Part shown: piece after piece, positions 61 to 28,995 of the stretch
Layout of the letters: each line of letters begins with the position of its first letter
How positions within the stretch are numbered: position 1 is the first letter of the stretch
Origin: a virus
Length of the DNA: 56,518 nucleotides
Virus record (IMG/VR): IMGVR_UViG_3300045988_112927
Location: 1-56,518 of that record
Direction: 5' to 3' (one strand)
Translations under genes and position numbers: made by a program
The notes under the pieces: generated by a model
What the model saw: the letters and a program-made list of their open reading frames with translations, nothing else
Databases searched by the model: none
Told to the model about the DNA's origin: nothing

Positions 61-501
61 ATGTATAAGAGTAAAATCAAACATAATACTTGGAGTATTA
101 TGAAAATTGAAATTTATAAGGATAATGAGCCTTATATAGAATTTTATAGAAATTATCCAAGCATTTCTATAGCTTTTGCAGAACAAAATAGTAAAGAATT
201 TATTATTACATCAGAAGATTATCAATGTATTACTATTATCAATTTAACCGATAAAGTAATTAAAACATATACAGATGTTGATGATATTCAGATGGGGTGT
301 GGATTCTGCCCCGTTGATATTGACTGGGATGAATATACTTTGTATATTGAAGGTTGCATATGGGGATGCCCTTATGAAACTATGATATGTAGAGATATTG
401 ATTTACAGAATCCAATAGATGCATTCAATAATGCCGAGTGGGATACCGAGTATGATGATGACATATATACTGACCCAGATGATGAAGAGGATGAGGATTG
501 A
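61..501 (+). CDS. hypothetical small Cys-rich protein with poly-acidic C-terminal tail
   Basis: 146-aa ORF. Two Cys pairs (GCGFCP, GCIWGCP) followed by a DE-rich tail (DDDIYTDPDDEEDED). The stop overlaps the -35 of the downstream promoter. No recognisable enzymatic motif. Confidence 0.5.
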   Translation: MYKSKIKHNTWSIMKIEIYKDNEPYIEFYRNYPSISIAFAEQNSKEFIITSEDYQCITIINLTDKVIKTYTDVDDIQMGCGFCPVDIDWDEYTLYIEGCIWGCPYETMICRDIDLQNPIDAFNNAEWDTEYDDDIYTDPDDEEDED

Positions 502-526
502 CTTTTAATAAAAAATATGATATAAT
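498..526 (+). promoter_or_regulatory. sigma70/SigA-type promoter (TTGACT - 17 nt - TGaTATAAT, extended -10)
   Basis: Seen directly: TTGACT at 498-503, a 17-nt AT-rich spacer, then TATAAT at 521-526 preceded by a TG at 518-519. It lies immediately upstream of the polymerase gene. Confidence 0.55.
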
Positions 527-4509: not shown

Positions 4510-5238
4510 GTGTATACAGTATATATTCATAGGAATAAAAAAAATCAAAAAGTGTATGTAGGATTAACTAAACAGACTCCTCAATCAAGGTGGAGAAGAA
4601 ATGGTGAAGGCTATAAAAATCAACCTAAATTTTGGAATGCTATTAAAAAATATGGTTGGGATAATTTTGAGCATATTATATTAAAAACGGGATTAACTGC
4701 AAAAGAGGCTGGTGAACTAGAACAAAATTTAATTAAAAGTTTTAATAGTATTCAAAATGGTTATAATGCCGATGAAGGCGGAATAATAACAAATCACTCT
4801 CAAGAAACCATAGATAAAATAAAAAAAGCTATGATTGGGAAGAATCATACACAAGAAACTAAAGATAAAATTAGTAATTCTAAAAATAATGATAAAAAAA
4901 TTGTAATTTGTATTGAAACTGGTATAGAATATGAAAGTGCAGCGTATGCTATGAAACAAACTGGGATTGATAGAAGTTCTATAAGTAAAGTTTGTTATGG
5001 TACTATGAATACTGCTGGTGGATATCATTGGTGTTTTAAAGGTCAAGAACCAATTTACACTAAAGATAAACGATTTAAATCAGTTATTTGTTTAAGCACT
5101 GGAAAAATATATCCTTCTATATCTGAAGCTGCTAGAGATACAAATTCTGACCCAAGCAATATAAAAAAAGTTTGTGATGGTAAATATAAAACTACAAATA
5201 AATTAAAATGGAAATATTATCAAGGTGAAGAAGAATAG
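4510..5238 (+). CDS. GIY-YIG homing endonuclease with NUMOD3 DNA-binding repeats (free-standing)
   Basis: The N-terminus VYIHRNKKNQKVYVGLT...R...GYNADEGG has the GIY-YIG layout. It is followed by tandem NUMOD3-like motifs (HSQETIDKIKKAM, HTQETKDKISNSK) and C-terminal DNA-binding-like repeats (SISKVCYG / SNIKKVCDG). The gene is extremely AT-rich and has its own RBS and a GTG start. Confidence 0.8.
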   Translation: MYTVYIHRNKKNQKVYVGLTKQTPQSRWRRNGEGYKNQPKFWNAIKKYGWDNFEHIILKTGLTAKEAGELEQNLIKSFNSIQNGYNADEGGIITNHSQETIDKIKKAMIGKNHTQETKDKISNSKNNDKKIVICIETGIEYESAAYAMKQTGIDRSSISKVCYGTMNTAGGYHWCFKGQEPIYTKDKRFKSVICLSTGKIYPSISEAARDTNSDPSNIKKVCDGKYKTTNKLKWKYYQGEEE

Positions 5239-8231: not shown

Positions 8232-8729
8232 ATGAAATACAGTGGATTAATACTTAACGATATGTCGGCGGCTCCTGGAGTCTGCGTGACGTTTTTTACA
8301 CAAGGTTGCCCACACAGATGTAAAGGTTGCCACAATCCTGAGACTTGGAATTTTGATGGTGGTAAAGAATTTACGCCTGATGTTTTAGATGAAATATGCA
8401 ATGGATTAACCGCTCAAGGAGTTAAAAGAAACTTCTGTTTAATGGGAGGAGAACCTCTTTGTTCAGAAAATTCTTTTCTTTCTTATTTAGTTGTTAAGAC
8501 TGTAAGAGAGAAAGTACCAGAAGCAAAGATATATATATGGTCTGGATATACTTTTGAGCAGTTAATTGAAAGCGGAGATAAGCGTACAAAAGATACCTTA
8601 AAAGAAGCTGATTATCTAATTGATGGTCCGTTTATAGAAGAATTGCGCGATGTCACCTTGCCGATGCGAGGAAGTAGCAATCAAAGGATTATTGATTTGA
8701 CAACTGAGTTAAAAAATGATATAATGTAA
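8232..8729 (+). CDS. nrdG: anaerobic RNR activating protein (radical SAM), NrdG
   Basis: The N-terminal CxxxCxxC cluster is GCPHRCKGCHNPETW. The size of 165 aa and the position directly downstream of nrdD are typical. Confidence 0.9.
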   Translation: MKYSGLILNDMSAAPGVCVTFFTQGCPHRCKGCHNPETWNFDGGKEFTPDVLDEICNGLTAQGVKRNFCLMGGEPLCSENSFLSYLVVKTVREKVPEAKIYIWSGYTFEQLIESGDKRTKDTLKEADYLIDGPFIEELRDVTLPMRGSSNQRIIDLTTELKNDIM

Positions 8730-8750
8730 ATAAAAGTGAGGTGTTAGTAG

Positions 8751-9266
8751 ATGGCTAATTTTATTCAAGTGGCGAATAAAAACGTTTTAACCAATCTGCG
8801 AAATCACGAAATAGGCGAACTTGCTTATGTTACAGATGAAAAGAAAATGTATGTATATAATGGCGAATGGGAAATAATGGAATCTGATGATAGCTCATTA
8901 TCAATTCCATTATATGAAATGAATAAAATGATATTAAGTGAATTACCGGCATTAAATGATGAAGAAATAGAAAAAGCAAAAGCTGTTATTCGTGAATATG
9001 TTTCAAATAATGCAGATGATTATTATATGTTATTATGCCATGAATTAAAGTATTTTACAGTATTTGCACAAGATGAATATTGTGATGTAGATGAAACTAT
9101 TGAAAATGTTATTTTTGATTGCCTAAATTATGTTGGAACTGTTAAATCTGTTGAATTATCAAAAGATGGTGGAGCCATTGAAATTTGGGTAACAACACCA
9201 GAAGACGATACATATGTCATGTATTTGTTTGATTATGGAAGGGGAATCGTACCATGCAGAATTTAG
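8751..9266 (+). CDS. hypothetical protein: N-terminal module shared with the tail-fibre N-termini, plus an acidic C-terminal domain
   Basis: MANFIQV...IGELAYVTDEKKMYVYNGEWEI aligns with the 2050-aa fibre N-terminus MANVKFL...EGSLYVTAEKVGTEW...YLYYDTNGERI. The remainder is DE-rich with no known motif. Confidence 0.5.
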   Translation: MANFIQVANKNVLTNLRNHEIGELAYVTDEKKMYVYNGEWEIMESDDSSLSIPLYEMNKMILSELPALNDEEIEKAKAVIREYVSNNADDYYMLLCHELKYFTVFAQDEYCDVDETIENVIFDCLNYVGTVKSVELSKDGGAIEIWVTTPEDDTYVMYLFDYGRGIVPCRI

Positions 9267-9532
9267 TATTTTGTAAAATCAATTTATTCGATGCTCTTCA
9301 AACCGTTATGCTAGTTAATGAGAGCGGTGCTACAGAGCTCGCGCACGTTGATTTACAGAACTTAGGACATACGATTGCTTCTGTATGTAATGAAGAAAAA
9401 GTGTTCAATGTGCGTCTTAATGGTAGTAGAGAGTATACTGAAAGTATTGCTGATGATATTAGAGTAGCTAATACATTTATGTATCATTCAAATCACGAAA
9501 TAAATATCGAGGTATCAGTAGAAGGAGAGTAA
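9254..9532 (+). CDS. hypothetical protein (92 aa)
   Basis: The ORF overlaps the upstream gene by 13 nt. No motif recognised. Confidence 0.45.
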   Translation: MQNLVFCKINLFDALQTVMLVNESGATELAHVDLQNLGHTIASVCNEEKVFNVRLNGSREYTESIADDIRVANTFMYHSNHEINIEVSVEGE

Positions 9533-9533
9533 A

Positions 9534-9779
9534 ATGAAATATTTAGTATCAACAACAGAAGTGTATAGAGTAGGAACTGTAGAAGAAGTAGAGGCTCTTC
9601 ATGAGGAACTAAAAAATGATGCAAGATTTACTTTAGTTTCTTTTAGTTATAAATATAAATGCCAGAAGCAAAAAGGTGAAATCATTGATGAGTGGCAACA
9701 GGTAACTGTTAAGAAAGAGTTCAATGAAGAGAAAAACCCTTGCACAGAAGTAGAAATTAATTATGAGGTGAAATTCTAA
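9534..9779 (+). CDS. hypothetical protein (81 aa)
   Basis: The ORF is tightly packed, and its stop overlaps the next start (TAATG). No motif recognised. Confidence 0.45.
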   Translation: MKYLVSTTEVYRVGTVEEVEALHEELKNDARFTLVSFSYKYKCQKQKGEIIDEWQQVTVKKEFNEEKNPCTEVEINYEVKF

Positions 9780-10339
9780 TGGCAAAGTTTGAAAAAGTAT
9801 CAAGAATGGCTGATGTTGATTTTGAAATGCCAAGACGTAAAACTGCGCAAAGTGCTGGATATGATATGGTTGTAGCAGAAGATGTTACTATTTATCCTGC
9901 ATTTGAGTTAATCCAAAAGATGGCAGATACTTATGACCATAAAGTATACAGTTTGGAAGAGATTGCGGCAATGACAAAATCAATTCAAGCAAAACCAACT
10001 TTGGTATCTACTGGAGTTAAATGTAAAATGGATGGAGACACTTATCTTGAACTTAGTGTTCGCAGTTCTTGTCCATTAAAGCATTGGTTAATGTTGGCTA
10101 ACAGCGTTGGTATTATTGACGCAGATTATTATAATAACTCAGATAATGAGGGAGAAATTTTCTTCCAGTTCATTAATTTGAGTCCTTTCCCAATTCGATT
10201 AAAAAAAGGAGAAGCTATTGGTCAAGGTATTATCAAGCCTTATATTAAGACTGAAGATGATACTGCGAATGGTTTGCGCGAAGGTGGCTTTGGTTCTACC
10301 GATAGCGCAGCTCAACCGACCTTAGCTCCAGCAACCTAA
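9779..10339 (+). CDS. dut: dUTP diphosphatase (trimeric dUTPase family) with an insertion between motifs I and II
   Basis: Motif I is SAGYDM. Motif III is GIIDADYYN..GEI. The motif IV-like block is AIGQGII. Motif V is REGGFGSTD. At 186 aa it is about 35-50 aa longer than minimal dUTPases. Confidence 0.75.
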   Translation: MAKFEKVSRMADVDFEMPRRKTAQSAGYDMVVAEDVTIYPAFELIQKMADTYDHKVYSLEEIAAMTKSIQAKPTLVSTGVKCKMDGDTYLELSVRSSCPLKHWLMLANSVGIIDADYYNNSDNEGEIFFQFINLSPFPIRLKKGEAIGQGIIKPYIKTEDDTANGLREGGFGSTDSAAQPTLAPAT

Positions 10340-10845
10340 TGTCTAATTTATTAGCACTGGACCAAGCAAGTGTCACATCAGGATACGCCGTTTTTAAAGA
10401 CGGCGTTCTTGTTGATTATGGCAAATTTACTTTTGATGATGACATTGGAGACCGTTTAGTTAAAATAAGAAATAAAGTTCTTGCTTTAATTAAATCACAT
10501 GATATTAACGAAGTAGCTTTTGAAGATATTCAAATGCAATCCAATGTTATGAATAATGTCCAAACATTTAAAGTATTATCTGAGGTATTTGGAGTTATTC
10601 AAGAGTTAATTACAGAATTGGGAATAAAATATACAGTTGTACCATCTGCCACATGGAAGTCGACTCTAAATATCAAAGGACGCACTCGTCCGGAACAAAA
10701 GCGGAATGCGCAAGCTTATGTTTTAGAAACTTATAATGTTAAGGCTATACAAGATGTTTGTGATGCTATATGTATTGGTACTCACGTACTAAAAAGACCA
10801 GGTGTAGGAACCGTTTCGACTGATGGATATGATTGGTCTGATTAG
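10339..10845 (+). CDS. RuvC-like Holliday junction resolvase (phage-type)
   Basis: The N-terminus LALDQASVTSGYAVF places the catalytic Asp in the RuvC position. AFEDIQ supplies a Glu. The C-terminal DAICIG matches RuvC architecture. The start overlaps the dut stop (TAATG). Confidence 0.7.
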   Translation: MSNLLALDQASVTSGYAVFKDGVLVDYGKFTFDDDIGDRLVKIRNKVLALIKSHDINEVAFEDIQMQSNVMNNVQTFKVLSEVFGVIQELITELGIKYTVVPSATWKSTLNIKGRTRPEQKRNAQAYVLETYNVKAIQDVCDAICIGTHVLKRPGVGTVSTDGYDWSD

Positions 10846-11403: not shown

Positions 11404-11808
11404 TTATTTATCAACTTGAATTTTATTTACATTTACACTTGCTTCAATTTGAGAAGTAATGTAAGCATTCAAATCTCCAAAAGCTTCAGATAAATATTCT
11501 TTTGCATCATCACTTAAGATTCCAAGTACAGCTTCTAATGTAGTATTAAAAGCAATCTTTTGCGCTTCTGCATCAAATTTACCCTGTTTCTTTAAAGACT
11601 CTACATATGTCTGATTAGTTGCTAACACACAAGCAGAAATTGTATCTGCTAACATTGTTGTGTATTTGTCAATCAAAGCGTTATCAGACTCTTCTACAAT
11701 TTTTGCACTTTTAACTTGAATGTATTTAACTAGATAAGTAGTTAAAACAGCAAGCAAAGGAATAATACATACCTCAAAAATTTGAGATAACATTTCTAAC
11801 CAATCCAT
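11404..11808 (-). CDS. holin-like small membrane protein (single N-terminal TM), last gene of the structural operon
   Basis: 134-aa ORF. The TM is CIIPLLAVLTTYLV, followed by a long hydrophilic helical tail. The RBS GAGGAGG is present. It sits at the operon end, where lysis genes typically lie. The assignment is tentative. Confidence 0.4.
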   Translation of the reverse strand: MDWLEMLSQIFEVCIIPLLAVLTTYLVKYIQVKSAKIVEESDNALIDKYTTMLADTISACVLATNQTYVESLKKQGKFDAEAQKIAFNTTLEAVLGILSDDAKEYLSEAFGDLNAYITSQIEASVNVNKIQVDK

Positions 11809-12239: not shown

Positions 12240-12255
12240 GTTTTTACTTGACTTT
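12232..12255 (-). terminator. hairpin spanning the stop codon of the 2050-aa fibre gene (10-bp stem, T-run downstream on the minus strand)
   Basis: AAAGTCAAGT (12232-12241) pairs with ACTTGACTTT (12246-12255). The fibre stop codon (12244-12246) is in the loop. On the minus strand the stem is followed by AUCCAAAUUUUUUG. Confidence 0.4.
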
Positions 12256-15200
12256 AATCCAAATTCGTCCGTTTACTTTAACCGGGTCTCTATCAGAGCC
12301 TTCTCCTCCACCCCACTCTTCATAAGTAGGAACGCAAGATACAGTACCAACGATTCTATCAGGATAATTAATAATTTCTTCACGAGTCATAATATCGACC
12401 GTTCCGCCCGGAGCGGCGCAAACACAATCACCAGGTTTATAATTATTTCTATCTTGATAAGTATATACAAGAACACGACCTGCTACTGCTATTGGAGTTT
12501 TAGCCTTTTCAGTCTCGCCTTGAGAGAATCCCCATGTATCTGAAGAAACACCGGCGAAATGTTGAAGTCTTTCAGTTGTTTTGGTTAAACTATCTTTTCC
12601 AGTTTCAGTTAATACATATCCATATTCGGTTGTATCAGCTTCTCGACACTCTGCGTAGTCATTCCATACTGCGCCAGTTACTGAATTACCTTCAATCCAA
12701 ATTCTCTTCCATGCATCTGCAGTTCCTGAGCGTACTGCACGATACCATAATTGGAAATGGTTTGGGTTACAGAAAATTTCTTGCCAGTAAGTAGTTCCCC
12801 ATGACATTCTTAATACTTGGACATTTGCTACAGAACCATTTTCATCACCATTACCAGCTGGGAAACTCCATAAGTTTCTGTTATTAGAACTACCTGCATA
12901 AGCATTACCAGCTGCCGTTCCCAAAGGAATTTGACCTGAAAAGTAGGTTAAAGTCTGATTATAAGCTGGAGCGCTTTGATTTGCTTTTACTTCAGTTGCC
13001 GGACCATTGAATTTAGCGGCTATAACGGTACCATTCGTCATGTCAACTTTAAAACGTTCATTAGCACCATCATGTAATCTAAAATAATTATCATAACTAT
13101 CTATACAAATTGTTTTATAAGAAGATGTCGCAGGATTTAATTTTATCTCTCCGCCTTCATGAGCAGTGTTTTGTGCAGTTACCGTTAAATATGTTGTAGT
13201 TAAAGCACCAGTCATGGTGTCTCCAGACTTTTTAACATAACGACCATCAAGAGTATTCATATATGTTGCAGTATTTAACAAAGTACCACTTGAAGCTGGC
13301 AAATAATTAGTATAATTAGCATCAGAGGTTGTAGCTATTAATGCATTATACCCTTCTCCTGCGCTATATAAATAAATTTCTCCTCTTTGGTTTCCTGTAG
13401 TTTCGTTAACTTTATAAGCATTACCAAGAGTCATTCTCATAAAACCTATATTGGCGGCTTGATAATAATAGTAACATCTTAATCTTGCTCCATCAGAGCT
13501 GTAAATTTGTCCATCGGTACTATTTATAAGAGGTAAATACCAGTTAACATCTTGATTTGCTGTTCTTGTAGTAGAATATACAAGTCTACCAAGATGAACT
13601 CCCATATAACCAGAAGCATTGGGAATCGTTACGGTTCTATTAGAAGTAGCAACTGCGGACTGAATATTAGTATATGCTGTTCTAGTACCATAAATCCATA
13701 AATTTCCTCTGGCATTATGAGCACCGCTTGTAGAAGCTACATCTTTATTATTACCAATTCTTAATACCATAACACCAGCAGTACCATTTGTAGTTGTAAC
13801 AGTGCCATCTGAGGCAGTAGATTGAGTTGCGGCTGTACCTATTTTAGATACATACATACCTAAAGTTTCAACAGAAGATTCTCTAAACCATAATCCAACA
13901 TTAATTGCAGCAACATCTATATAAGTATTACCATTAAATGAAGATGTTCCCTTTACATATAGCTTATGTCCAAAGTCTACCCCACCAATGCTTACATTAT
14001 TCAGATGTGCTTGCGCGCTACTGTTAACATAGTAAGTTGTTCCATTGGCAAAATATGTAATACCATTATGAGTAACATTGCCATCAAATTTAGTGGTACC
14101 ATTTACATATAATCTATATGAAGTGTTTCTACTAGTTTGTCCAAGAGCTAAATATGGTAGTGAAGCAGCTCCTGTTGTATGGTCCATGATTAAACCATAC
14201 ACCGAATAAGTAGTTTGTTTTGCACTATTATAATTACATCTAATAGAGAATACTCCACCCTCATTAGCTAATTGCCAAGAAGCATTTCCACCTCTCCATA
14301 ACTCAATACCGACATTACCACTACCACCATTTAATTCAGAACTTACGATTAATTGTCCAGTTACATTCGATGAACTAGATGCGTTACCTTCAATTCTTAA
14401 TCTACCAGTATTAGAACTTAATGACATTCTTGCTGTTGGCTTAGTTGTTGCTGCAACACTAGCATTAGAAGTAGCCTCCCAAATCCATCCATATCCTGCG
14501 GCATTCTCAATTAAACTTCTTCTTGCCCATGAAGTAACTTCTGTCGTCGTAGATGGCTTTCCATTAGTAGGACATAATCCATCTTGTGGGTCAGACATAT
14601 AATCTACCCATGTATAATAATTAGGATGATACCAATAGATACGACCATTAGTATTCCCACCAGCTCTGTTGAGCATCAATCTATTTCCACTAATATATCC
14701 AAGACCACTAATAGAAGCAACGTTAGTTGAACCTCTTTTGAAAATCCAACCTCTATTACCTGTATCACTCATAGTGAAATAAGTAGCCCAGTCGCTAGTT
14801 ACATATGAATGAGTTCCCGCACTTGAAGTCTGTCTAAAATAAATAGCATAGCTTGAAGATGCATTATATAAAGTAATACCGCCATCACTACCAGAGCCAC
14901 CCATATTAGTATGTAACCATCTTGTGTACATACCATTAAAATAGTTACCTGAAGTACCAATAGATTGAGCATTAGCTTGCCCAACTTCTGCTTTAACTGG
15001 AATTACAGCACCAGCAGTGGTAACTTGTATACCAATTCTATTTGCTATAGTATCTGCATTAGCTTCAATATTAACAGCACCATCTGCTAATAAATATAAA
15101 ACCTCTGTTCCACCTGCAACTGACATGCTTTGCGCAGACTCTCCGGCGCCAATAATAGTAACTCCACCACCACCAATAGAAATACCATTGCCGTGAGCAT

Positions 15201-18200
15201 CTGAAGTATTATCGATAACTCTAATTAAAGAAGTTGTAGCTTGAGTACCAATAGCATAAATGTTTCCATTCTTTGGTAAATATACATTTCCGTTTAAGTA
15301 TGAGGTTCCTTGCACATATAAATTATATCCGATGTTTGCGGCGCCACCGACACTTACAATAGGTAAAAATGTATGACCTGAACTATTGATATAATATGTA
15401 GAACCTCCTGCAAAATAAGCAGTACCATGAGTTCTAGTACCATTTGTAAAGATTTCAAATCTTGTTTTTGGAACTGTTGAATCACACACTGCAGTCCAAG
15501 AACCACTTACAGCAGTTTCGTATGTTTGGAATAAATGACCTGCGGCTACATGACGAATTCTGTCTGGACCCGAACCATTTACAGCAGTCATTGAAGATGT
15601 AGAACCCATGTCATTACCTTTAAATAAAAGTAATTCAGAAGATTCACTATCACCCCATCTGTTTTCACCGATATAAGTATGATTAAAACTTCCGGCTCCA
15701 TCACCAGTAGTACCATAGAATGCAATATAGTTGGTATCTCCGTTCGCATTATTACCAACTCTTAATCCATTATTAAAAGTAGCAGTACTATTTACTGTTA
15801 AAGTATTAAATTTTGCATTAGCAGAATTATCAATATAATATGTCGTACCATTAGCAAAATATAATATACCATTAAATAAACTGTTATCTGTAACTTTTAA
15901 AGCGTAATTAGTATCTGGCGCAACCCTAATTCCAACTGAACGAGCGAAATAACCATCACCACTTGAATTAGCATAAAAAGTTGAACCACCCGTTTTAAAT
16001 TGAGTGGTCGCATTAAATGTATACGCAAATACTTCTTTCCATCTTGTACCAGTTGTACCAATATCCTGAGCATTATTAGATGTAGCCAATGGAACACCAG
16101 GAAATATTGTATTACCAGAACCATTTAATAATGTTAATGTGCGTTTTACTGTAGCAAAAACCCCACTATATTGACGAACATGAATTGGTTCATTGTAATC
16201 ATCAGCCGTAGCAATTTCCAAATAACCACCATTTGAAGCGGTTGCTCCTGCTCGAATTCTTGCATAATCATTATCGCCAACAGTCCATTGAATGCCTTTA
16301 GCTAGACCAGAAGATATATTAGGGAAATAAATCATTCCTGTAAATGTTTTATCTCCTGCAATAGTTTGTGCGGCGTTGGTTATTACGCCCGCAGAACTAG
16401 CACTAGCGACCGGAACGTTGATTGCCGCAAGGTCAGCACCAGTACCATCCTTATATGTCAAAGTTACTGTAGTTCCAGTGCTACTAAATGCCATAGAAGA
16501 AACATATTTTGAAGAAATAGTATTTCCTCTATCATCAGCATATGCTCGAGCAGCCATACCTTCTACTACATCAACAATCAATTTTGCAAAACCAGAAGTA
16601 GAAACCTTATTAGTTGCATTAGCTACAATAGTTGCCCATGTATCTGTTGCCCCTGGGTTAAATTTGAATTTATCATTCTTAACTGGAGTTCCAACATTAC
16701 TACTATGAGAAAACCATACATTACGTGCGCTATTGCCAGTATTATTTTCAATACCAGAGTAATTAAAACCGCTTGCCTTTTGGATTGTTAAAGAACCATT
16801 AGAGTCAAGAGTTTTTGCGCCAGTTAGTGTTTGCGCTCCGGTCGTAATAGCGCCAGCCGCACTAGCACTTGCAGTAGGAAAATCAACAGTAGCCTTTAAT
16901 GCTCCACTTCCACTATATAGATTAACAACAACTTTAGTTGTTTTATTTGTAGTACCATCAAATCCAATATTAGCTAAATAATGTGTTTTGAACACATTAT
17001 TCATATCATCAGTTTTAGCTCCATCTGCACTTGAAGCATGATTTGCTTCTTGAACAGTAGCACCATCACTTGCTACAATAGTATTTGTGTATGTAACACC
17101 TAATTTTGTAGCACCATCTGAAATTGATGTATAACACTCTGTTGAAGTTTTTTTATCAGCAGAAGTAGTATTATCAACTTCAGTAGAACTAATTAAAGTC
17201 CAACTTCTACTACCTTGTAATTGATAAACAGTACATCTAGGCCAAGTACCAACTTTATAATATAAATCTGCTAATGAATTACCTGATGTATTTCTTAATC
17301 CAATTTGTAAAGCATCTTTTGATATATTATATCTATATAACCATTTAATAGTAGCATTAGCAGTATTGCCAGTAGAAATATTATTAGTTCTTAAAGAAAC
17401 TTTAGCTACACCATATCCTCCGCCATCATAACTATGACGAATTGCAATTATCATTTCTTTATCATTATAACTAGCTGTTACATTGCCAGTAGTTGCAATT
17501 CTATGCCAAGGATAATTAGCAGTATTACCTCCACCAACAGAACAAGAATAACTTCTTGCATTTAAAGTAACATTTTTACTTCCGTCAATAGTTACAACAC
17601 CTTGCAAATCTTCAGCTAAAGTAATATTTCTAGCATTAAGCCATTTATCTGCAGTAGCCGCATTACCATTTAAACTACCAGTTACATTACCATTTAATGC
17701 ACCATTAAAAGTTGTTGCATTAATAGTAATACCATAAATAATCTTCCAACGTAATTTATCAGTACCAAGACTCAGACTGTTATCTGCTTTTGGTTGAACA
17801 TTTCCACCAAATTGTGTAGTACCACCATCATTATTGATATAAATAATTGAAGCAGTAGTGCCATTTGATTTGGCTTGAATTTCATTAGCATCTATAGCAA
17901 TATGCGAACCAGTAGGCGAACCGATTAATAAAGAGCCAGAGTTTGCTGTAGCTGCGGCAGCGTCGATTCCACCGGTAATAACTACCTGACCCGTAAAAGT
18001 CTTTTTACCAGCAAAAGTCTGCGCGCCGGTAATCACAGTTCCGGCCGTAGTAGCTGAAGCAACCGGCATTAATATAGTCGTAGTATTACCATCACCTTTG
18101 GTATAAGTTAAAGTTACACCATCTGTGCTAGCATACTTTGTTCCTTCCATAGAAATTGCTTTTATGTACGTTTGAGCAATATTTTGGTTTCTGTCATCCT

Positions 18201-18396
18201 GTGAAGCTTTTGTCACAAAATTAGAAACTTTAATACGCTCTCCATTAGTATCATAATATAAATAGCTTCTCCACTCTGTACCAACTTTTTCAGCAGTTAC
18301 ATATAAACTACCTTCGACTATTGGATTAGCGTAAGCGCCATTTACTTTCTTAAGAAGGTTGGTTTCTGTACCGGTTAAAAATTTTACATTTGCCAT
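12244..18396 (-). CDS. giant tail fibre protein (2050 aa)
   Basis: Gly/Ser/Thr/Asn-rich beta-rich composition. YFANGTTYY(I/V)-type segments recur four times. MNTLDGRYVKKSGDTMTGAL is the T4 gp37/lambda Stf-type fibre repeat signature. The N-terminal MANVKFL...GSLYVTAEK module is shared with other fibres. A distinct C-terminal ~150-aa domain follows. Confidence 0.8.
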   Translation of the reverse strand: MANVKFLTGTETNLLKKVNGAYANPIVEGSLYVTAEKVGTEWRSYLYYDTNGERIKVSNFVTKASQDDRNQNIAQTYIKAISMEGTKYASTDGVTLTYTKGDGNTTTILMPVASATTAGTVITGAQTFAGKKTFTGQVVITGGIDAAAATANSGSLLIGSPTGSHIAIDANEIQAKSNGTTASIIYINNDGGTTQFGGNVQPKADNSLSLGTDKLRWKIIYGITINATTFNGALNGNVTGSLNGNAATADKWLNARNITLAEDLQGVVTIDGSKNVTLNARSYSCSVGGGNTANYPWHRIATTGNVTASYNDKEMIIAIRHSYDGGGYGVAKVSLRTNNISTGNTANATIKWLYRYNISKDALQIGLRNTSGNSLADLYYKVGTWPRCTVYQLQGSRSWTLISSTEVDNTTSADKKTSTECYTSISDGATKLGVTYTNTIVASDGATVQEANHASSADGAKTDDMNNVFKTHYLANIGFDGTTNKTTKVVVNLYSGSGALKATVDFPTASASAAGAITTGAQTLTGAKTLDSNGSLTIQKASGFNYSGIENNTGNSARNVWFSHSSNVGTPVKNDKFKFNPGATDTWATIVANATNKVSTSGFAKLIVDVVEGMAARAYADDRGNTISSKYVSSMAFSSTGTTVTLTYKDGTGADLAAINVPVASASSAGVITNAAQTIAGDKTFTGMIYFPNISSGLAKGIQWTVGDNDYARIRAGATASNGGYLEIATADDYNEPIHVRQYSGVFATVKRTLTLLNGSGNTIFPGVPLATSNNAQDIGTTGTRWKEVFAYTFNATTQFKTGGSTFYANSSGDGYFARSVGIRVAPDTNYALKVTDNSLFNGILYFANGTTYYIDNSANAKFNTLTVNSTATFNNGLRVGNNANGDTNYIAFYGTTGDGAGSFNHTYIGENRWGDSESSELLLFKGNDMGSTSSMTAVNGSGPDRIRHVAAGHLFQTYETAVSGSWTAVCDSTVPKTRFEIFTNGTRTHGTAYFAGGSTYYINSSGHTFLPIVSVGGAANIGYNLYVQGTSYLNGNVYLPKNGNIYAIGTQATTSLIRVIDNTSDAHGNGISIGGGGVTIIGAGESAQSMSVAGGTEVLYLLADGAVNIEANADTIANRIGIQVTTAGAVIPVKAEVGQANAQSIGTSGNYFNGMYTRWLHTNMGGSGSDGGITLYNASSSYAIYFRQTSSAGTHSYVTSDWATYFTMSDTGNRGWIFKRGSTNVASISGLGYISGNRLMLNRAGGNTNGRIYWYHPNYYTWVDYMSDPQDGLCPTNGKPSTTTEVTSWARRSLIENAAGYGWIWEATSNASVAATTKPTARMSLSSNTGRLRIEGNASSSSNVTGQLIVSSELNGGSGNVGIELWRGGNASWQLANEGGVFSIRCNYNSAKQTTYSVYGLIMDHTTGAASLPYLALGQTSRNTSYRLYVNGTTKFDGNVTHNGITYFANGTTYYVNSSAQAHLNNVSIGGVDFGHKLYVKGTSSFNGNTYIDVAAINVGLWFRESSVETLGMYVSKIGTAATQSTASDGTVTTTNGTAGVMVLRIGNNKDVASTSGAHNARGNLWIYGTRTAYTNIQSAVATSNRTVTIPNASGYMGVHLGRLVYSTTRTANQDVNWYLPLINSTDGQIYSSDGARLRCYYYYQAANIGFMRMTLGNAYKVNETTGNQRGEIYLYSAGEGYNALIATTSDANYTNYLPASSGTLLNTATYMNTLDGRYVKKSGDTMTGALTTTYLTVTAQNTAHEGGEIKLNPATSSYKTICIDSYDNYFRLHDGANERFKVDMTNGTVIAAKFNGPATEVKANQSAPAYNQTLTYFSGQIPLGTAAGNAYAGSSNNRNLWSFPAGNGDENGSVANVQVLRMSWGTTYWQEIFCNPNHFQLWYRAVRSGTADAWKRIWIEGNSVTGAVWNDYAECREADTTEYGYVLTETGKDSLTKTTERLQHFAGVSSDTWGFSQGETEKAKTPIAVAGRVLVYTYQDRNNYKPGDCVCAAPGGTVDIMTREEIINYPDRIVGTVSCVPTYEEWGGGEGSDRDPVKVNGRIWIKVK

Positions 18397-21534: not shown

Positions 21535-24500
21535 TTATGCGCTAACATAGCTAATAGTGCCGACAATAGTTGAACCGCTTGAATCTACAGCTAATGAAGG
21601 TAAGATTTCTGCCTCCACTCTTGCCTTAACAGCATCACTTACGTCACCGAAGAATGTTACTGTCATAATCTTACGAGTTCTATTCTGCGCGAAAGGTTGA
21701 GTTCCGAAATCAGCGATTCTAGTAGGAGCTCCTTTCTTACCGAAGTTAACTACGAATGCTGGTTCGTTACCATTACCAATACCAGAAGAATAAGCAAACG
21801 CCTGCGCACCGATATATTCCACAGAAGCTGGAATATTTAATGTTACAGTTGTTGAAGAGCGAAGCGCACCAGAGAATACGTAATTATCAATGTAAGTCAA
21901 AGATGAATTACTGAAATTCAATGGAGCTAAATATGAACATTGTGAGAAGCAACTTTCACCTAAGTAAGTAACTGATTTTGGTAAATCAAAATATTTCAAA
22001 GATGTTAAGTTTTGGAATGTCATTCTAGCTACTTCTAGTACTTGAGGTGTTCCATCCCAGAAGACATGAGTCACTGGAGATGCTTGGAAGCCCGCAATAG
22101 AGATTACAGGTTTATTATTATAAGTAGTAGGAAGAGTTACTTTACCTGATAATGAGATATTAGGTTGTAATCTATAACCACTTGTAATTACGCCTGTTAG
22201 AGGGTCTTCAAAGTCATACTCGATAAAATCGAAATATTTAGAATCTGTTGCACTAGCGTATACGCTTTCTTTTAAGAATACTCCATAGAACTGAGTATTC
22301 TGAGTTGCTAAAATTGAACTGATATTTACTAACTTAGCTTCATTCTCATTTGTTACGATAAGTTGTTTAATATTTTGAGTCCATCCTAAGAATCTATATC
22401 TTTCTTCGTCTCCTAAGTCATCTTCTGGTATAGAAGGAATAATACTTGGAGCACTTAATACTTCACCATGAGTAATGTTTTCGCTATACCAAGTTGTCAT
22501 ACTACTCTCGTTTGCGCCAGCCATATACTCAATAGTCCATTTATGAACTGTGAAGATTGCATAGAATGTGTAATCTGTTTTACCAGACTCTAACTTCAAA
22601 GCATTCCATGCGGCAGCCTGTTCCTCCGCACTTGCAGACGCGCTCGCAATCAAACCACTCATATCATTAGTTGTTGACCAACCGTGGAAATCGTAGTTAT
22701 CTTTTACTGGAGCATAAATTTCATATGGATTTGTGAACCATTCTCCAGAGCCAATCTTCTGAACTGAAGGTTCAGTATTATTAGCATCCTTGTTTGGAAC
22801 GTAATTCCATGTTCCATCGTCTTCTTGCAAGATGAAACGAGCTGAATTTGCAGGAGTAACAGTCTTGAAGAATACTGTTAAACCAGGGAAGTTCTTAACT
22901 AAAGTATTTCTTACCCAAAGTTCATCTATAGCCTCATCATTAGCAACATACATAATACCAGTAATGTTAGGAATTGTACTTCCTTCATTTGTACTGATAT
23001 ATAAACCATTAGTGATGAACTCTTTGAACATTTCTACATCAGCAATCTGATTGATATCTTCATCAGAGATTGTTTCATCAAGTCTATATAATTCACCATT
23101 TAATACCTGGATATCAAATGTTGAAGCATTATAAGTATATTCAGAGAAACCATAGTGTCCGTTGTCAACGAAGTATTTAGCTGAGCTATCGTATACATCA
23201 CCTTCAACTAACTGAACATATGGAGACCAGTTAACTTTAGTCATTGCAATTTGAGAATATTGAGCAGTTTGCTTACTTCTCAAATCAAAATATTTCTTTA
23301 AGAGTTTGTAACTATCATATCCAAGAGCACCACCTAAAAGGCTTAAGGTGCTAATAGACGTAGTTCCTTCACCCTCGAACATACCTTGTAAGTATAGTCC
23401 TTTTTCCGCAACTAATTCTCCATGAGCATTTGCTTCTGGGTAATGATACTCAGTAATTAAGTGAGTAAGCAAGTTCGCTTCAGTTAATGATAATCTTGTG
23501 ATTGATGTTGGTAAATACAATGTATTAAGAGCAACACCATCAGCGAATGAGATATCTGTGAAGTTAGAACCAGTAGCACGGAAGTTCTGTAATTTTTCAC
23601 AAGATGTCAAATCAAGTACTGGAGTACCTGTATTTATTGTGATGTTACAGAAGTTAACCTCTTTTAATAGTGGCATACCTGTTGCGTCTCTACCTGCTGG
23701 GATTGATGGCTGGTTAACTTTATTATTATACCATGTATAATAATTCTTTCCATCAACTGTTACAACAGTGTTGTTTCCAGAAACATCTACGCCCTCTGGA
23801 ACTTCCATAAGTCCGTCGTAACCCATCTTCAAAGTAGTTAACTTAGAAGCGTCGCCAGAGATTTCAAACTCTTGCCAGTATAAGTTACTCATATCACCTA
23901 AGTCAGCCATTTGATTTAAGCCGTATACATATAACAACTGCTCTGGGTAGTTATTACTCTTACGAACACCATTTTCAATAGCGTCGATATTGAATTTAAC
24001 TGGATTAATACCATCATACTTCTTAGATGGATAAGCCTCGTTGTCGTCACTTACTGTTACATAAGAGCTTCGAATTGGAGTAAGATTTAACCAATACTCT
24101 GCATCAAACAAGTTGGTCTTCTTTCCATCTGCGCCATAGTATGGAGCACCAGAAGTTTCAACCCAGATATCTGAAGTCTTTGTAGCGTTGTTAGCAGCCA
24201 CACGACCACGGATACGATTAGCACCACCACGTTGGTAGTTACCTTGATTTAACCAAGAGTCAATATACTCAATACGGTTTGTCAAGAACTGCTGTCTTGA
24301 TAATGAACGGTCACCTTGTAATGCATAGAAATAAGTTCCGTTTGCATCATATGTGTAAGTACCAGTAGTATCAGAAGAAATATGACCTGTAGTACCATCT
24401 TTGTAACCTTTACTATTTGTAATAGTAATATACTTGTAATACTCATCTAAGTTGGTTGCAATTAAAGGTCTTTCACCTCTCATTGCGATACAACCAGTTA

Positions 24501-27500
24501 CTTTAGGGTCGAATTTATACCAACCTTCAATTCTATCAATGCTATATAATGGAGCATTCTTCAACTGTGACCAACTTACATTATTAGTAACACCTTTTAA
24601 GTGTTTATACTTCATAAGGATGTAAGAATCTTTGAAGTACTTGTAGAAGTTATTCCAAAGAACTGAATCAGAAGTTGAATAGTTACCAGCTTCAGTAGCA
24701 TCAACATTATATTCGAATGAAGGAATACCGGTATTGTTAATACCTAACTGTGTATCAATATCATAGAAGATTGGATACCATACATAGTCTCCGCCTGCTT
24801 TTTGAGGACCCCAAGAAGCCCACATTGCGTTCTTACCACGTGAGTCGTAACACTCAAATACTTCAGTCATAATAAAATAAGTAGCTAAGTATTCGATATC
24901 AAAGTGGTCTGCGAGTTCATTTACGAACTTAGCAGCACGATATTCTTTAGTATCATGAGTATATGTCTTATTACCATACTTAACCTGGATAGCTTCATAG
25001 AATTTACCTGGTTCATAATTTGCACTTGTAACCTCGGCTACAGTTACACATTTACCAGCTTCTGTTTGACTTCCATCGTAGTTATAATATGTCTTGCCTT
25101 CTGTAAAGTAAGAATCCTCACAAATCTTAACGATTAAATCTGTCTTTGACTTATAAGAATCGTCCTCTACTAATCTATAATATGCGCATGAATTATCAAA
25201 GTCTTGTTCACTTCTTAATACATAAGAACCATTTACGAGTTCGTAGAACTTGTTAGCTTCATACATTAAGGTTGAATCAACTGCATAAGCATTTACATAA
25301 CTTTGAGTACTGCTATCATATTTGTAGTAAACCTGATTAAATACATAATCATCATCAGATAATACATACTGTCCATCTTCTGTAAAGATATAATATGTAC
25401 CTGGAACATATAAAGTGTTACCAACATTTACTTCTTCGTAAGTACCTTGAGAAGGAACCATATCAGTATTTGTTGACCATACCCATTTATTTACTTTCTC
25501 CCAGTTTTCATATAACTTGTAAAGAAGATTGCGGCCGCCCTCATATTCTCCGGCTGATGGGTCAAAGTAGTACTCTTCACCATACTCCTCAACGATTGCA
25601 GCAATATCATCTGGTTTAGCTTCATTCATTGCATATAAAACATCAAGAGCGTCTTCATTACTATTGTAACGATATTCTACATGGTCTGCAACAATTGGAG
25701 CTTTTGCTGAAGTGAACTCATTAGCTACTCCACTTGGAGCCTTAAAGCTTAACTCCATTCTTCCCCATGGGTCTCTAAATGAACAGAAACCACGGTTATT
25801 GTTTGAGAATTCCCAACATTCTACAATGTCACGAACTTTCTTGCCATCAAGATAATTAGCAGTTACTTTCTTGCTTGGCTTGAAACCATAGCATTCATCA
25901 GAACCTTTATCAAGAAGCATTCTATACAAACCGATGAACTGATAACTTCCATCAGATTTCTTATGGAAAGCTAATACTGGGAAACCTTGAACTGAAGTTC
26001 TATATTCATTCCAGTTAATTTCTCCAGTTACAGAACTCTTTAATTCGTCTGTATTACTCAATGCGCCTGCCGCAACATAGTCCTGTAAAGGATGCTTTGA
26101 ATAAGCATTATATACTAAGTTAGCAAAACCGCCATTGTATGAACCAGAAGACTCCATGAAGTCAACTTTCATAGTCCATTTATTAGTTCCATTTGTATAG
26201 TTATCTAAATACCAATAAGACTGACGAGATTCCTCATCTCCTAATTCAATTTCCTTGTTTGCAATCTTCTCTTGGTCATCAAGATAAGTCTGCGCCCAAG
26301 GTCCTCTATTTAAGAAGATATGAATTCTTTCTTGCTCATCTGCATCATATTTGGTCTTTGTCTTAATTTTATAATTACGTCTTGGATAGAACTCTGAAGA
26401 TGTACCTTGTACAGCCATTTCAATGTTTTCACCTTTCCAAGAAGGACAGTGATGTTTATAGTAAAGCTTAACAGCTGCTTCTTTTTCTTCTGCCGTAGAT
26501 TTATCAGTGAATAAGCCATCAGCCTTAGCCAATTCTTCCAATTCACCAGAAGCATAAGCTCTATCTAAACCTGTATTAACAAATTCAACTCCAATGCTTA
26601 ACTTAGTTTTCTTTGAATAAGAAAGCTTATCGTTATTATTAGTATTGGTTGTATCAAAAATGATATAAGGCATAATTGGAGCATCTGGATGGTCTTCATT
26701 ATACTTAATCATATTTGTATAGTTGAACTGATATTCATTGATTGCTAAGTTTTCTTCTGCTAACTTATTTTGGTCGTACATAGTAACGTCTCTTAAGTCT
26801 ACAGAATAGTTTGTTACAATATCATTTACATTCAAATCAGTGTTATAAACTCTGATTTTGTATAAGTCAATATCGCAATAGTTAGAGTTAAATACCATTG
26901 CGGCAGAGTTGATAATAAACTGTCCTGCTACAGTAGATTTAATAACTCCAGTGATAACACCATTGATATAGATATACATTAACTTAGAAGTATGAGAATA
27001 AACCATACTAATGTTAACCATCTTATCTTCAACGTAGTTTACGTTTACAGTGTTTGTTCCGTTTGAGAAGAATGCGTCCTGAGGTCCTAAAGCGAAACCT
27101 ACTGCACTATTTTCATCGCCTGAGTAGTATCCGCAGATAACTCGGTCAAGTGAGATTTCCTTCTGAACGTAATCAAACTCTAAGCTATCATATTCAACAC
27201 GAGTTTCATCTACATCTAACTCATAGATAGGTAAGTAATATTGTAAGAAAGCATCGTAGTTACTATACTTACTCTGAGCCTTAAATGCTGTATAGAATTT
27301 ATCGTCTGATTTATAACGAGTTACATTGTGGATTAAGTTTGAGTAATCCTGTACGTTTCTAACCTTGAATTGAACTTCAATAGAGTTAGACTGCTTAGAA
27401 CTATCTGTTGAAGCAAATGTCATAGCTCCTAAAGGAATAGAGAATTTTGCTCCATTTGAAATTCTTAAGCAAGTATTGTTATCATCATCAAGAACCCAAC

Positions 27501-28995
27501 CATTGTTATACCAGTTGAAATCTTCAAAAGTAGCTTTAATATTACCATCTTTTGTAGTCCAAATCTGTCTGTTAACAACTGATTCATTGTTTGAACGTCC
27601 TCTTGACTCGAATTCAAGTTTCAAGTAATCCTGTTTTACAGGCTCCATTGTACGGTTAGGGTCCTGAGACACCATGAATGAAATGCTTCTTTCAACATCG
27701 CCGCAACCAATAGAGTATCTATTAACCATATCAAGGTCAGCATCTGTGATTTCAAAATAATTCCACTTGTCTAATGAAGAGGTATTGATATCACGAGGTG
27801 AACTTGCAATTTCAGTTCCGTTTTTCTTTAAGGTAATACGAGCACTTGCAGTATTAGCAGGGTCATATACTAAGAAAGGAATCTTAATTGGGTCATAGTT
27901 ATAATACTCACTCTGATAATTACCTAACCAGATAACTGGCTCAGTGTTTCCAGCTTCGAATACACCAATCTCGAATTCGATTGGGTCTACCATAATTCCC
28001 TCTGTCCATTTACCGCTTACTACGATTGCTTGCCATAATTCAATACGAATCTTGTGAGAACCATGAGTAGCAACAGATGAAGGAACCATATAACTCTGAT
28101 AGTTTTCAGCACTAGCAGTTAACTGCTTTGTAGCAATAAGCTGGTCATCAAAGTAATATTTCAAAATCTTATTCATAGCACCAATAGCATTACATTGTAA
28201 CTGTACTGTTGTTGGTGTGTAACGATTCAATGCTGAGAAGTTTGCGCTCTGGGTTAAAACTAACTGAGAAGTTACAACTTCAATATTCTTTGAAGTAGAC
28301 TCTCCGGAGTTTACGCCGGCCGCATACATAGTTAATCTTGTGGTTGTATCTGCTCTTAAATGACTTCCTAAATCGAAAGTTGAATTAACGCCAGATTGAA
28401 CATCCAAAATACCCTGTGCATATAAAGTATATGCAGTACCAGATTTTGCTTCCAATGTCCAGTGAACTGTTAATTTATCGTCCATTTGAGAACCATCAAC
28501 ATCAACACCAGAAGTAGCTAAGAATGAAATTGCAATAGCTTGACCATTAATCAAGTTTGAAGTCTCTGGTGACTTAATCTGAATACCAATTTTCTTGGCA
28601 AAGCTTGCGCCACCACCTCCGCCGCCGCTACCACCGGAACCACTAACAGACATAAGTGTACAAATCATAATTCTTTCTTCGGCATTTACTTCTTGTACAC
28701 GATAAAAAATTCCGTCTTGATTAAGAATTAAATCTCCCTCTTTTGGAGTAATATCCTCTTCTAAGTGGTCGAATTCTAAAGTGTATAAAGAGTATTCATC
28801 AGGTTCGATTGTAGGAGCATTACCATATAATAAAGCAACGCCACTTCCACCCATGGCTACTCTTGTATCCATATCAAGGTCGAAATAAATTTTTCCCGTA
28901 TCAGATGCGAAATAAACATAACCAGGGTTCTTACCAGTACTCTGGATTTGAGCATCTGTGCCTGTGACAGGTCTAAATCTTGTCTTATCTGTCAT
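21535..28995 (-). CDS. giant fibre/adhesin-like structural protein (2486 aa) with C-terminal Listeria-Bacteroides repeats and BspA-type LRRs
   Basis: The N-terminal module is RPVTGTDAQIQSTGKNPGYVYFASDTGKIYFD, shared with other fibres. A Gly-rich linker GSGGSGGGGGGAS follows. The C-terminus contains two Y.F.GW...FY(A/G)(I/V)F repeats (Flg_new-like). It also has IP.SV.YIG..AF, LPKSVTYLGESCFSQCSYL and LTYIDNYVFSGA segments (LRR_5/BspA-like). Confidence 0.7.
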   Translation of the reverse strand: MTDKTRFRPVTGTDAQIQSTGKNPGYVYFASDTGKIYFDLDMDTRVAMGGSGVALLYGNAPTIEPDEYSLYTLEFDHLEEDITPKEGDLILNQDGIFYRVQEVNAEERIMICTLMSVSGSGGSGGGGGGASFAKKIGIQIKSPETSNLINGQAIAISFLATSGVDVDGSQMDDKLTVHWTLEAKSGTAYTLYAQGILDVQSGVNSTFDLGSHLRADTTTRLTMYAAGVNSGESTSKNIEVVTSQLVLTQSANFSALNRYTPTTVQLQCNAIGAMNKILKYYFDDQLIATKQLTASAENYQSYMVPSSVATHGSHKIRIELWQAIVVSGKWTEGIMVDPIEFEIGVFEAGNTEPVIWLGNYQSEYYNYDPIKIPFLVYDPANTASARITLKKNGTEIASSPRDINTSSLDKWNYFEITDADLDMVNRYSIGCGDVERSISFMVSQDPNRTMEPVKQDYLKLEFESRGRSNNESVVNRQIWTTKDGNIKATFEDFNWYNNGWVLDDDNNTCLRISNGAKFSIPLGAMTFASTDSSKQSNSIEVQFKVRNVQDYSNLIHNVTRYKSDDKFYTAFKAQSKYSNYDAFLQYYLPIYELDVDETRVEYDSLEFDYVQKEISLDRVICGYYSGDENSAVGFALGPQDAFFSNGTNTVNVNYVEDKMVNISMVYSHTSKLMYIYINGVITGVIKSTVAGQFIINSAAMVFNSNYCDIDLYKIRVYNTDLNVNDIVTNYSVDLRDVTMYDQNKLAEENLAINEYQFNYTNMIKYNEDHPDAPIMPYIIFDTTNTNNNDKLSYSKKTKLSIGVEFVNTGLDRAYASGELEELAKADGLFTDKSTAEEKEAAVKLYYKHHCPSWKGENIEMAVQGTSSEFYPRRNYKIKTKTKYDADEQERIHIFLNRGPWAQTYLDDQEKIANKEIELGDEESRQSYWYLDNYTNGTNKWTMKVDFMESSGSYNGGFANLVYNAYSKHPLQDYVAAGALSNTDELKSSVTGEINWNEYRTSVQGFPVLAFHKKSDGSYQFIGLYRMLLDKGSDECYGFKPSKKVTANYLDGKKVRDIVECWEFSNNNRGFCSFRDPWGRMELSFKAPSGVANEFTSAKAPIVADHVEYRYNSNEDALDVLYAMNEAKPDDIAAIVEEYGEEYYFDPSAGEYEGGRNLLYKLYENWEKVNKWVWSTNTDMVPSQGTYEEVNVGNTLYVPGTYYIFTEDGQYVLSDDDYVFNQVYYKYDSSTQSYVNAYAVDSTLMYEANKFYELVNGSYVLRSEQDFDNSCAYYRLVEDDSYKSKTDLIVKICEDSYFTEGKTYYNYDGSQTEAGKCVTVAEVTSANYEPGKFYEAIQVKYGNKTYTHDTKEYRAAKFVNELADHFDIEYLATYFIMTEVFECYDSRGKNAMWASWGPQKAGGDYVWYPIFYDIDTQLGINNTGIPSFEYNVDATEAGNYSTSDSVLWNNFYKYFKDSYILMKYKHLKGVTNNVSWSQLKNAPLYSIDRIEGWYKFDPKVTGCIAMRGERPLIATNLDEYYKYITITNSKGYKDGTTGHISSDTTGTYTYDANGTYFYALQGDRSLSRQQFLTNRIEYIDSWLNQGNYQRGGANRIRGRVAANNATKTSDIWVETSGAPYYGADGKKTNLFDAEYWLNLTPIRSSYVTVSDDNEAYPSKKYDGINPVKFNIDAIENGVRKSNNYPEQLLYVYGLNQMADLGDMSNLYWQEFEISGDASKLTTLKMGYDGLMEVPEGVDVSGNNTVVTVDGKNYYTWYNNKVNQPSIPAGRDATGMPLLKEVNFCNITINTGTPVLDLTSCEKLQNFRATGSNFTDISFADGVALNTLYLPTSITRLSLTEANLLTHLITEYHYPEANAHGELVAEKGLYLQGMFEGEGTTSISTLSLLGGALGYDSYKLLKKYFDLRSKQTAQYSQIAMTKVNWSPYVQLVEGDVYDSSAKYFVDNGHYGFSEYTYNASTFDIQVLNGELYRLDETISDEDINQIADVEMFKEFITNGLYISTNEGSTIPNITGIMYVANDEAIDELWVRNTLVKNFPGLTVFFKTVTPANSARFILQEDDGTWNYVPNKDANNTEPSVQKIGSGEWFTNPYEIYAPVKDNYDFHGWSTTNDMSGLIASASASAEEQAAAWNALKLESGKTDYTFYAIFTVHKWTIEYMAGANESSMTTWYSENITHGEVLSAPSIIPSIPEDDLGDEERYRFLGWTQNIKQLIVTNENEAKLVNISSILATQNTQFYGVFLKESVYASATDSKYFDFIEYDFEDPLTGVITSGYRLQPNISLSGKVTLPTTYNNKPVISIAGFQASPVTHVFWDGTPQVLEVARMTFQNLTSLKYFDLPKSVTYLGESCFSQCSYLAPLNFSNSSLTYIDNYVFSGALRSSTTVTLNIPASVEYIGAQAFAYSSGIGNGNEPAFVVNFGKKGAPTRIADFGTQPFAQNRTRKIMTVTFFGDVSDAVKARVEAEILPSLAVDSSGSTIVGTISYVSA

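Follow-up and report, generated by a model that had tools for sequence, protein, structure and literature searches.

The window analysed here is the whole 56,518-nucleotide stretch of IMG/VR record IMGVR_UViG_3300045988_112927, which comes from a ~190-kb contig of an uncultivated phage in a human-gut metagenome. At positions 8751–9266 (+ strand) it encodes X171, an acidic protein of 171 amino acids (aa) and a member of a large uncharacterized phage family, in which a short N-terminal module of a kind found on phage fibres and tailspikes is joined to a second, unrelated domain. The open reading frame (ORF) is present with the sequence given in an earlier reading of the DNA by sequence alone (hereafter the sequence-only reading), and a ribosome-binding site, GAGGTG (8738–8743, +), can be read 7 nt before its ATG. 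The protein is divided into an N-terminal module (residues 1–44; 8751–8882, +), predicted to form a beta-alpha-beta-beta-beta unit of the fibre-type or multiplexin-type trimerization class, an acidic linker modelled at low confidence (residues 45–53; 8883–8909, +) and an acidic alpha/beta C-domain (residues 54–171; 8910–9263, +) with the predicted order alpha-alpha-beta-beta-alpha-beta-beta-beta.

The X171 gene lies among nrdG, dut and ruvC, and a 2050-aa fibre gene (12244–18396) occupies the other strand, as the sequence-only reading had placed them. The + strand genes encode PolIII-alpha, a GIY-YIG endonuclease, guanylate kinase, NrdD, NrdG, X171, p92, p81, dUTPase, a RuvC-like resolvase and a 155-aa protein. 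The upstream neighbour of X171 is nrdG (8232–8729, +); downstream, the 92-aa ORF p92 (9254–9532, +) overlaps the 3′ end of X171 by 13 nt, so that the two are likely to be translationally coupled. The 81-aa ORF p81 (9534–9779, +) is the next gene of this unit and is followed by dut (9779–10339, +) and the ruvC-like gene (10339–10845, +). The − strand carries, from position 11808 on, the genes for a holin and a 123-aa protein, which are followed by a tail block of 44 kb (12244–56514); a tape-measure protein and a number of giant proteins resembling fibres are among its products.

Inside the 3′ end of nrdG lies an extended −10 promoter of the sigma-70/sigma-A type (TTGACA, a 17-nt spacer with TG, TATAAT; 8697–8725, +), which matches the consensus at 12/12 positions in addition to the TG and is located 26 nt upstream of the X171 ATG. 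Only three near-perfect TTGAC[AT]-17(TG)-TATAAT sites occur in the window, at 498–526 (+), 8697–8725 (+) and 12239–12211 (−), and these precede the PolIII-alpha gene, X171 and the p123/holin unit, respectively. The tail block contains none of these consensus sites, which suggests that tail transcription depends on another type of promoter or on a phage factor. A near-consensus promoter, kept also where the upstream gene differs, precedes the X171 homologue by 40–65 nt in four relatives (L006, L007, L008 and L027) and in 17 of 23 distinct IMG/VR loci.

The gene order polIII-gmk-nrdD-nrdG-X-p92-p81-dut-ruvC-p155, where X is the X171 homologue, is found in essentially all of 51 IMG/VR loci and in contigs from metagenome-assembled genomes (MAGs). 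A p92 homologue follows the X171 homologue, usually overlapping it, in L001, L006, L007, L008, L026, L027 and most IMG/VR loci, and the order of p92 and then p81 is kept across most of the clade. In the distant phage Phass-1 the X171 homologue is still near the polIII-alpha gene, and no nrdD, nrdG, dut or ruvC was detected in its 12.5-kb locus.

A profile search of 1.84 billion representative proteins (E ≤ 1e-3, clusters at 50% identity) assigned 1,499 clusters, nearly all of them metagenomic, to the X171 family; a first homologue search with X171 itself returned 46 homologues. Most clusters contain proteins of 160–180 aa with the same two-part architecture. Pfam, PHROGs and NCBIfam hold no family for X171, p92 or p81, and the BFVD matches to X171 are uncharacterized relatives only. 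Among GenBank phage records, three queries found the family only in Phass-1 and in one unannotated 5.5-kb fragment. Outside GenBank phages, the family was seen in MAG data solely on contigs of phage size in Bacillota MAGs, which points weakly to Bacillota as hosts, with Acutalibacteraceae or other Clostridia as candidates. Four contigs of 158–176 kb with the same replication module (L085, L087, L088 and L089) were binned into Acutalibacteraceae, Bacilli and Clostridium MAGs.

In family members carrying the N-module, the module always starts at residues 1–3 of the protein, with ~0 to 36 residues, depending on the relative, separating it from the C-domain. Other members consist of the C-domain only, including L027, L080, L082, L083, several clusters of 119–141 aa and BFVD proteins of 110–125 aa. 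In L075–L078 (e.g. L075 3896–4459) a charged, helical-looking leader (MKETPNAIYMEPEEYEAYLKEQEEKQEKLKAYYESLKEG...) replaces the N-module, and this leader may be an alternative oligomerization device. Because module-less and leader-bearing relatives exist, the C-domain is the conserved core of the family, and the N-terminal piece behaves like an exchangeable accessory. A split gene was considered as the origin of the C-domain-only forms and was rejected; the upstream ORF in L027 encodes an unrelated Cys-rich peptide. A recent capture of the N-module from this phage's own fibre was also rejected, since the fusion is common to most of the family.

The N-module has one statistically supported homologue within the window, and this is found in a 597-aa tail protein (29113–30906, −). 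The tail protein starts with two tandem beta-alpha-beta-beta-beta modules. Module 1 (residues 1–52; 30751–30906, −) is the canonical MANVGFKLG...GSFYLTSDTHRLYIG N-terminus that is common to other fibres, and module 2 (residues 56–103; 30598–30741, −) is the closest relative of the X171 N-module. When all window proteins were cut into 70-aa pieces and the resulting 501 tiles were aligned with the N-module profile by hhalign, the top tile was residues 56–103 of the 597-aa protein (P 2.1e-5). Profile–profile comparison of the N-module with module 2 gave P values of 1.9e-6 and 1.7e-6 when the 597-aa homologues were represented by 6 IMG/VR sequences and 15 database sequences, respectively, and the match spanned the whole module. 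The excised module 2 segment matched the N-module profile with a P of 4.8e-8 and a probability of 94.9% over 44 columns; taken together, these comparisons gave probabilities of 90–95%. In 250 column shuffles the mean score was 7.9 ± 1.9 and the maximum 16.6, compared to 32.1 for the real alignment. Identity between the two modules is ~23–25%, and module 2 has the same predicted order of secondary-structure elements as the X171 N-module. It differs in being internal, where it follows module 1 and precedes ~500 residues of beta-rich fibre; the X171 module is N-terminal.

Module 1 behaves differently. It resembles the N-termini of the 2050-aa fibre (P 9.8e-5, probability 58% by hhalign) and of a 2486-aa protein (21535–28995, −) that carries the same module type (P 1.6e-4), whereas its similarity to the X171 N-module is faint (P 0.007). 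Aligned in register, modules 1 and 2 of the 597-aa protein are themselves only faintly similar (P 0.007–0.008). Because module 1 is common to three fibre proteins (of 597, 2050 and 2486 aa), it is the natural candidate, as judged from sequence comparison, for a common docking element of several fibres.

The sequence-only reading had aligned X171 "residue-for-residue" with the N-terminus of the 2050-aa fibre (residues 1–56; 18229–18396, −). This alignment did not survive comparison with shuffled controls, and no significant similarity to X171 was found in that region. BLASTP of X171 against the fibre returned nothing significant, the best N-terminal pieces having E = 30–36. Smith–Waterman alignment of X171 residues 1–44 with fibre residues 1–60 scored 29, against 21.9 ± 4.5 for 2000 shuffles (z = 1.58, p = 0.08), and was outscored by a stretch of the unrelated RuvC-like protein (z = 5.7). 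A family hidden Markov model (HMM) of the N-module derived from A1 scored the fibre at −0.7 bits, which is not above background; with the A2-derived HMM the fibre was not among the top matches listed; and in searches of the six-frame translation of the window with the family HMMs, X171 itself was the sole match. With hhalign, the N-module profile matched the 2050-aa fibre N-terminus with a probability of only 0.35–0.5% and the N-terminus of a 310-aa protein not at all, and for the 597-aa and 2486-aa proteins the N-termini aligned in register with no more than hints of similarity (P 0.002–0.007). A word-indexed search with the N-terminus of the 2050-aa fibre returned one homologue, its IMG/VR matches were internal repeats of other fibres rather than N-termini, and for the N-terminus of the 2486-aa protein no relatives were found in IMG/VR. 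The broader part of the claim, that X171 begins with a type of module also present at the N-terminal ends of fibres and tailspikes, stands; the specific match to the 2050-aa fibre is at chance level. A short core, G-x-h-Y-h-x-x-(D/E), common to modules 1 and 2 is probably what had been noticed.

An AlphaFold2 (AF2) model of X171, built on 41 sequences, has a predicted local distance difference test (pLDDT) score of 81.9 and consists of an N-domain (residues 1–42, beta-alpha-beta-beta-beta), a disordered acidic hinge (pLDDT <50 at residues 46–49) and an alpha/beta C-domain. The N-module ends in a foldon-like hairpin, MYVYNGEWEIM. The predicted fold, a unit of ~45–55 aa, can be superposed on solved trimerization domains, and an independent model of residues 1–125 of the 597-aa protein, which includes no X171 C-domain, gave the same top structural match and the same order of strands and helix. 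To this can be added a Pfam scan in which 114 diverse N-modules of the family were compared singly with 24,736 models. The recurring matches were Collagen_trimer (18 members), DUF2793 (10), Mtd_N (6), Tail_spike_N (6) and Fibritin_C (4), and the best Mtd_N match had an E of 8.6e-6. By name or description, most of these families are N-terminal or trimerization elements of fibres and tailspikes. The weak Pfam matches of X171 itself are located at residues 19–38. PDB sequence searches with the whole-family profile and with the N-module profile returned nothing significant; the N-module alignment, likewise not significant, placed module positions 17–44 on residues 18–45 of 3n3f. The label of a "fibre-attachment" module given in the sequence-only reading is not justified by these results. 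The structural relatives are autonomous trimerization domains (the collagen XV/XVIII trimerization domain, the Mtd N-terminal domain and a foldon-like hairpin), and the N-module resembles module 2, not the module 1 that is common to three fibres.

The rest of X171 is, as had been proposed, an acidic domain unrelated to fibres. Its invariant residues are N58, K132, S133 and E144, and it contains an aromatic cluster. No convincing structural or sequence relative of this C-domain was found, and a flavodoxin-like partner for NrdG was rejected on the topology of the AF2 model, which differs. The acidity is equally clear: X171 has an isoelectric point (pI) of 4.21 and a net charge of −20, so that it ranks second in acidity, relative to length, among the proteins of the window, and a net charge of −12 to −23 is kept in 41 family members. 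A strong negative charge is what is expected of a DNA mimic with an anti-restriction role; no sequence or fold similarity to a known DNA mimic of the Ocr or ArdA type was found. First in acidity (pI 4.05, −17 charges per 100 aa) is the product of a 146-aa ORF (61–501, +) upstream of PolIII-alpha, which has no family match.

Several further features of the clade were observed. A small Cys-rich ORF of 49–61 aa (e.g. ...CVCEIEKTQDTKCMCKAF...CNCG...) is located between nrdG and the X171 homologue in some relatives (L027 472–621, L007 5761–5946) and is absent from the window. In L054 and L055 the apparent truncation of the X171 homologue is due to an in-frame TAG. In-frame stops within X171 homologues are TAG at L039 4214, L054 4037 and L055 3986 and TGA at L082 4088 and 4112, and several IMG/VR relatives also have other genes in pieces, for example nrdD. 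These observations indicate that parts of the clade recode TAG or TGA, and some of the homologues that look truncated do so because of it. Phass-1 has been filed in a "code 15 clade," and the window itself reads cleanly under code 11. The GIY-YIG endonuclease gene (4510–5238, +), between polIII-alpha and gmk, is absent from relative L006, which has a 72-aa ORF (2302–2520) in its place. In relative L007 (1–5289), PolIII-alpha contains an intein together with LAGLIDADG, and a GIY-YIG gene interrupts nrdD. The replication module evidently gains and loses selfish elements.

The interpretation we favour, with about an even chance of being correct, is that X171 is not a virion component but a soluble homotrimer, whose N-module serves as an oligomerization clamp for a novel acidic alpha/beta C-domain. 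X171 would be made from the host-type promoter together with the DNA-metabolism genes p92, p81, dut and ruvC, and the N-module (~44 residues), of the type that nucleates trimers in fibres, tailspikes and the NC1 region of collagens XV and XVIII, would clamp three copies of the C-domain through a short flexible hinge. The C-domain would be the working part of the protein and would probably bind a host or phage partner with trivalent avidity. The data show a real and conserved gene, the homology and predicted fold of its N-module, the promoter and the synteny; we infer that X171 has early or middle timing and is absent from virions, and that the C-domain has an effector or binding role. Several points weigh against this interpretation. 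Trimer formation is predicted from fold similarity alone, and X171 itself falls under the Pfam gathering thresholds (12.4–12.7 bits against 26.3 for Mtd_N; 13.7–14 against 23.8 for Collagen_trimer). Genes for structural proteins may be located away from the main structural block. The consensus promoter does not by itself measure timing, and a similar one precedes the p123/holin unit. The charge of X171 is a weak clue, because most proteins of this phage are acidic.

For none of the alternatives is there positive support other than the homology of the module or the adjacency of the genes. An unlikely one is that X171 is a virion-associated mini-fibre or decoration, with the N-module docking or trimerizing on the particle so that the C-domain is exposed on the tail or head. 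The homology of the N-module to a module in a tail protein of the same phage is consistent with such a role, as are the occurrence of the fold at the N-termini of tailspikes and Mtd, the short distance (~3 kb) between the gene and the end of the tail/lysis block and the use of a similar consensus promoter by the p123/holin unit. The gene, however, lies between nrdG and dut/ruvC in every locus examined except that of Phass-1 and never among tail genes; in the window and the 51 IMG/VR loci it is neither encoded in the tail block nor co-oriented with it. No shaft, beta-helix or receptor-binding-like domain was found after the N-module in the predicted structure of X171. Module-less members keep the same operon position, and the N-module resembles the non-shared module 2 rather than module 1.

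The genomic neighbourhood could instead point to an accessory factor of nucleotide metabolism, with a trimeric C-domain acting with the NrdD/NrdG anaerobic ribonucleotide reductase or with the trimeric dUTPase. In nearly all loci the gene directly follows nrdG, or follows the small Cys-rich ORF behind nrdG, and it is upstream of dut in the same unit, C-domain-only variants included. All of those loci belong to one syntenic clade, however, so the adjacency may simply be inherited, and the conserved promoter separates X171 from nrdDG. The Phass-1 homologue, near polIII-alpha in a locus where those neighbours were not detected, also argues against this role, and no similarity was found to flavodoxin, thioredoxin, NrdH, NrdI or a known ribonucleotide reductase partner. 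Such a function is rather improbable.

A fibre-assembly regulator, cap or decoy, which would co-assemble with the 597-aa protein or compete for fibre docking sites, is very unlikely. Its attraction is that the only significant intragenomic relative of the N-module is module 2 of that same tail protein. Yet an identity of ~23–25% is low for mixed trimers, the likely docking element, module 1, is not carried by X171, variants without the N-module exist, and the fusion, being common to most of the family, is not a recent capture from the phage's own fibre. Known genes for tail-fibre assembly chaperones of the Tfa type come directly after the fibre gene that they serve, unlike X171, which adjoins no fibre gene; the closest one is on the other strand and ends at a distance of ~3 kb. 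The cap, decoy, assembly-regulator and mini-fibre roles had all been put forward in the sequence-only reading; no positive evidence for any of them was found, and the host-type promoter, the fixed DNA-metabolism locus, the module-less members and the absence of a shaft or receptor-binding-like domain argue against them together. More doubtful still is a variant in which the exapted fibre module on an early, soluble X171 still recognises module 2, so that mixed or stacked trimers time, cap or decorate fibre assembly; if true, tail-fibre display in a large clade of gut phages would be regulated in trans by X171 from a separate promoter.

Least probable of all is that the resemblance to fibre modules is a chance short motif on a single-domain or unrelated two-domain protein, an idea consistent with the chance-level pairwise and HMM comparisons to the 2050-aa fibre and with the below-threshold Pfam matches of the window protein.

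If X171 is indeed a soluble trimer, a minimal fibre trimerization module with the same fold as the multiplexin collagen domain would be a portable oligomerization device, reused here outside virion proteins. The N-module is of a known type. As far as the libraries and literature searched show, neither the presence of such a module on a small protein of early type that is not a fibre nor the C-domain family has been described. The family is large and unannotated (at least 1,499 clusters), and its gene has a fixed place, with a strong promoter, in the replication module of a clade that is abundant and uncultivated. For annotation pipelines there is a practical consequence, in that proteins with a GE-x-A-Y-x-x-D-x-x-K-x-Y motif should not be called tail fibres. 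The family may also offer a compact natural trimerization tag of ~45 residues, and the acidic C-domain is worth testing for host-takeover or anti-defence activity.

Among known systems, the tail proteins used for comparison were Mtd of Bordetella phage BPP-1 (PDB 1yu0; PF18454 Mtd_N), for the N-terminal domain, and tailspikes such as ORF18 of Geobacillus virus E2 (7chu; PF18668 Tail_spike_N; PF10983 DUF2793). These proteins measure 380 to >600 aa, act as receptor-binding fibres or enzymatic tailspikes and have their genes in tail modules, whereas X171 has 171 aa and is encoded in a replication module. The N-terminal domain of Mtd and the foldon of phage T4 fibritin (PF07921 Fibritin_C) are both trimer-forming. 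The X171 hairpin, K-M-Y-V-Y-N-G-E-W-E-I-M, resembles that of the foldon, A-Y-V-R-K-D-G-E-W-V-L-L, but this is a likeness of one hairpin only and is not significant; HMM matches of the N-module profile to foldon chains are weak (E ~0.8), and Fibritin_C was matched by 4 family members. The foldon is a C-terminal element of 27 residues and the X171 module is N-terminal, and both would be minimal trimerization devices.

The closest parallel in overall layout comes from outside phages. The NC1 region of collagen XV/XVIII, the multiplexins (PDB 3n3f, 9bnb; PF20010 Collagen_trimer), is an animal extracellular structure in which the trimerization domain is C-terminal to the collagen helix and N-terminal to endostatin/restin. 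X171 has no collagen repeats, its similarity to Collagen_trimer is below the Pfam threshold, and literature searches on Mtd_N or on a connection between phages and the collagen XVIII domain yielded nothing usable. With ~50 residues each, the collagen XV/XVIII trimerization domains stabilize the oligomer through their hydrophobic core, and a hinge and then a globular domain come after them; trimeric antibodies have been engineered with their help (PMC7852327). This succession of trimerization domain, hinge and globular domain is paralleled in X171 by the predicted N-module, the acidic linker and the C-domain.
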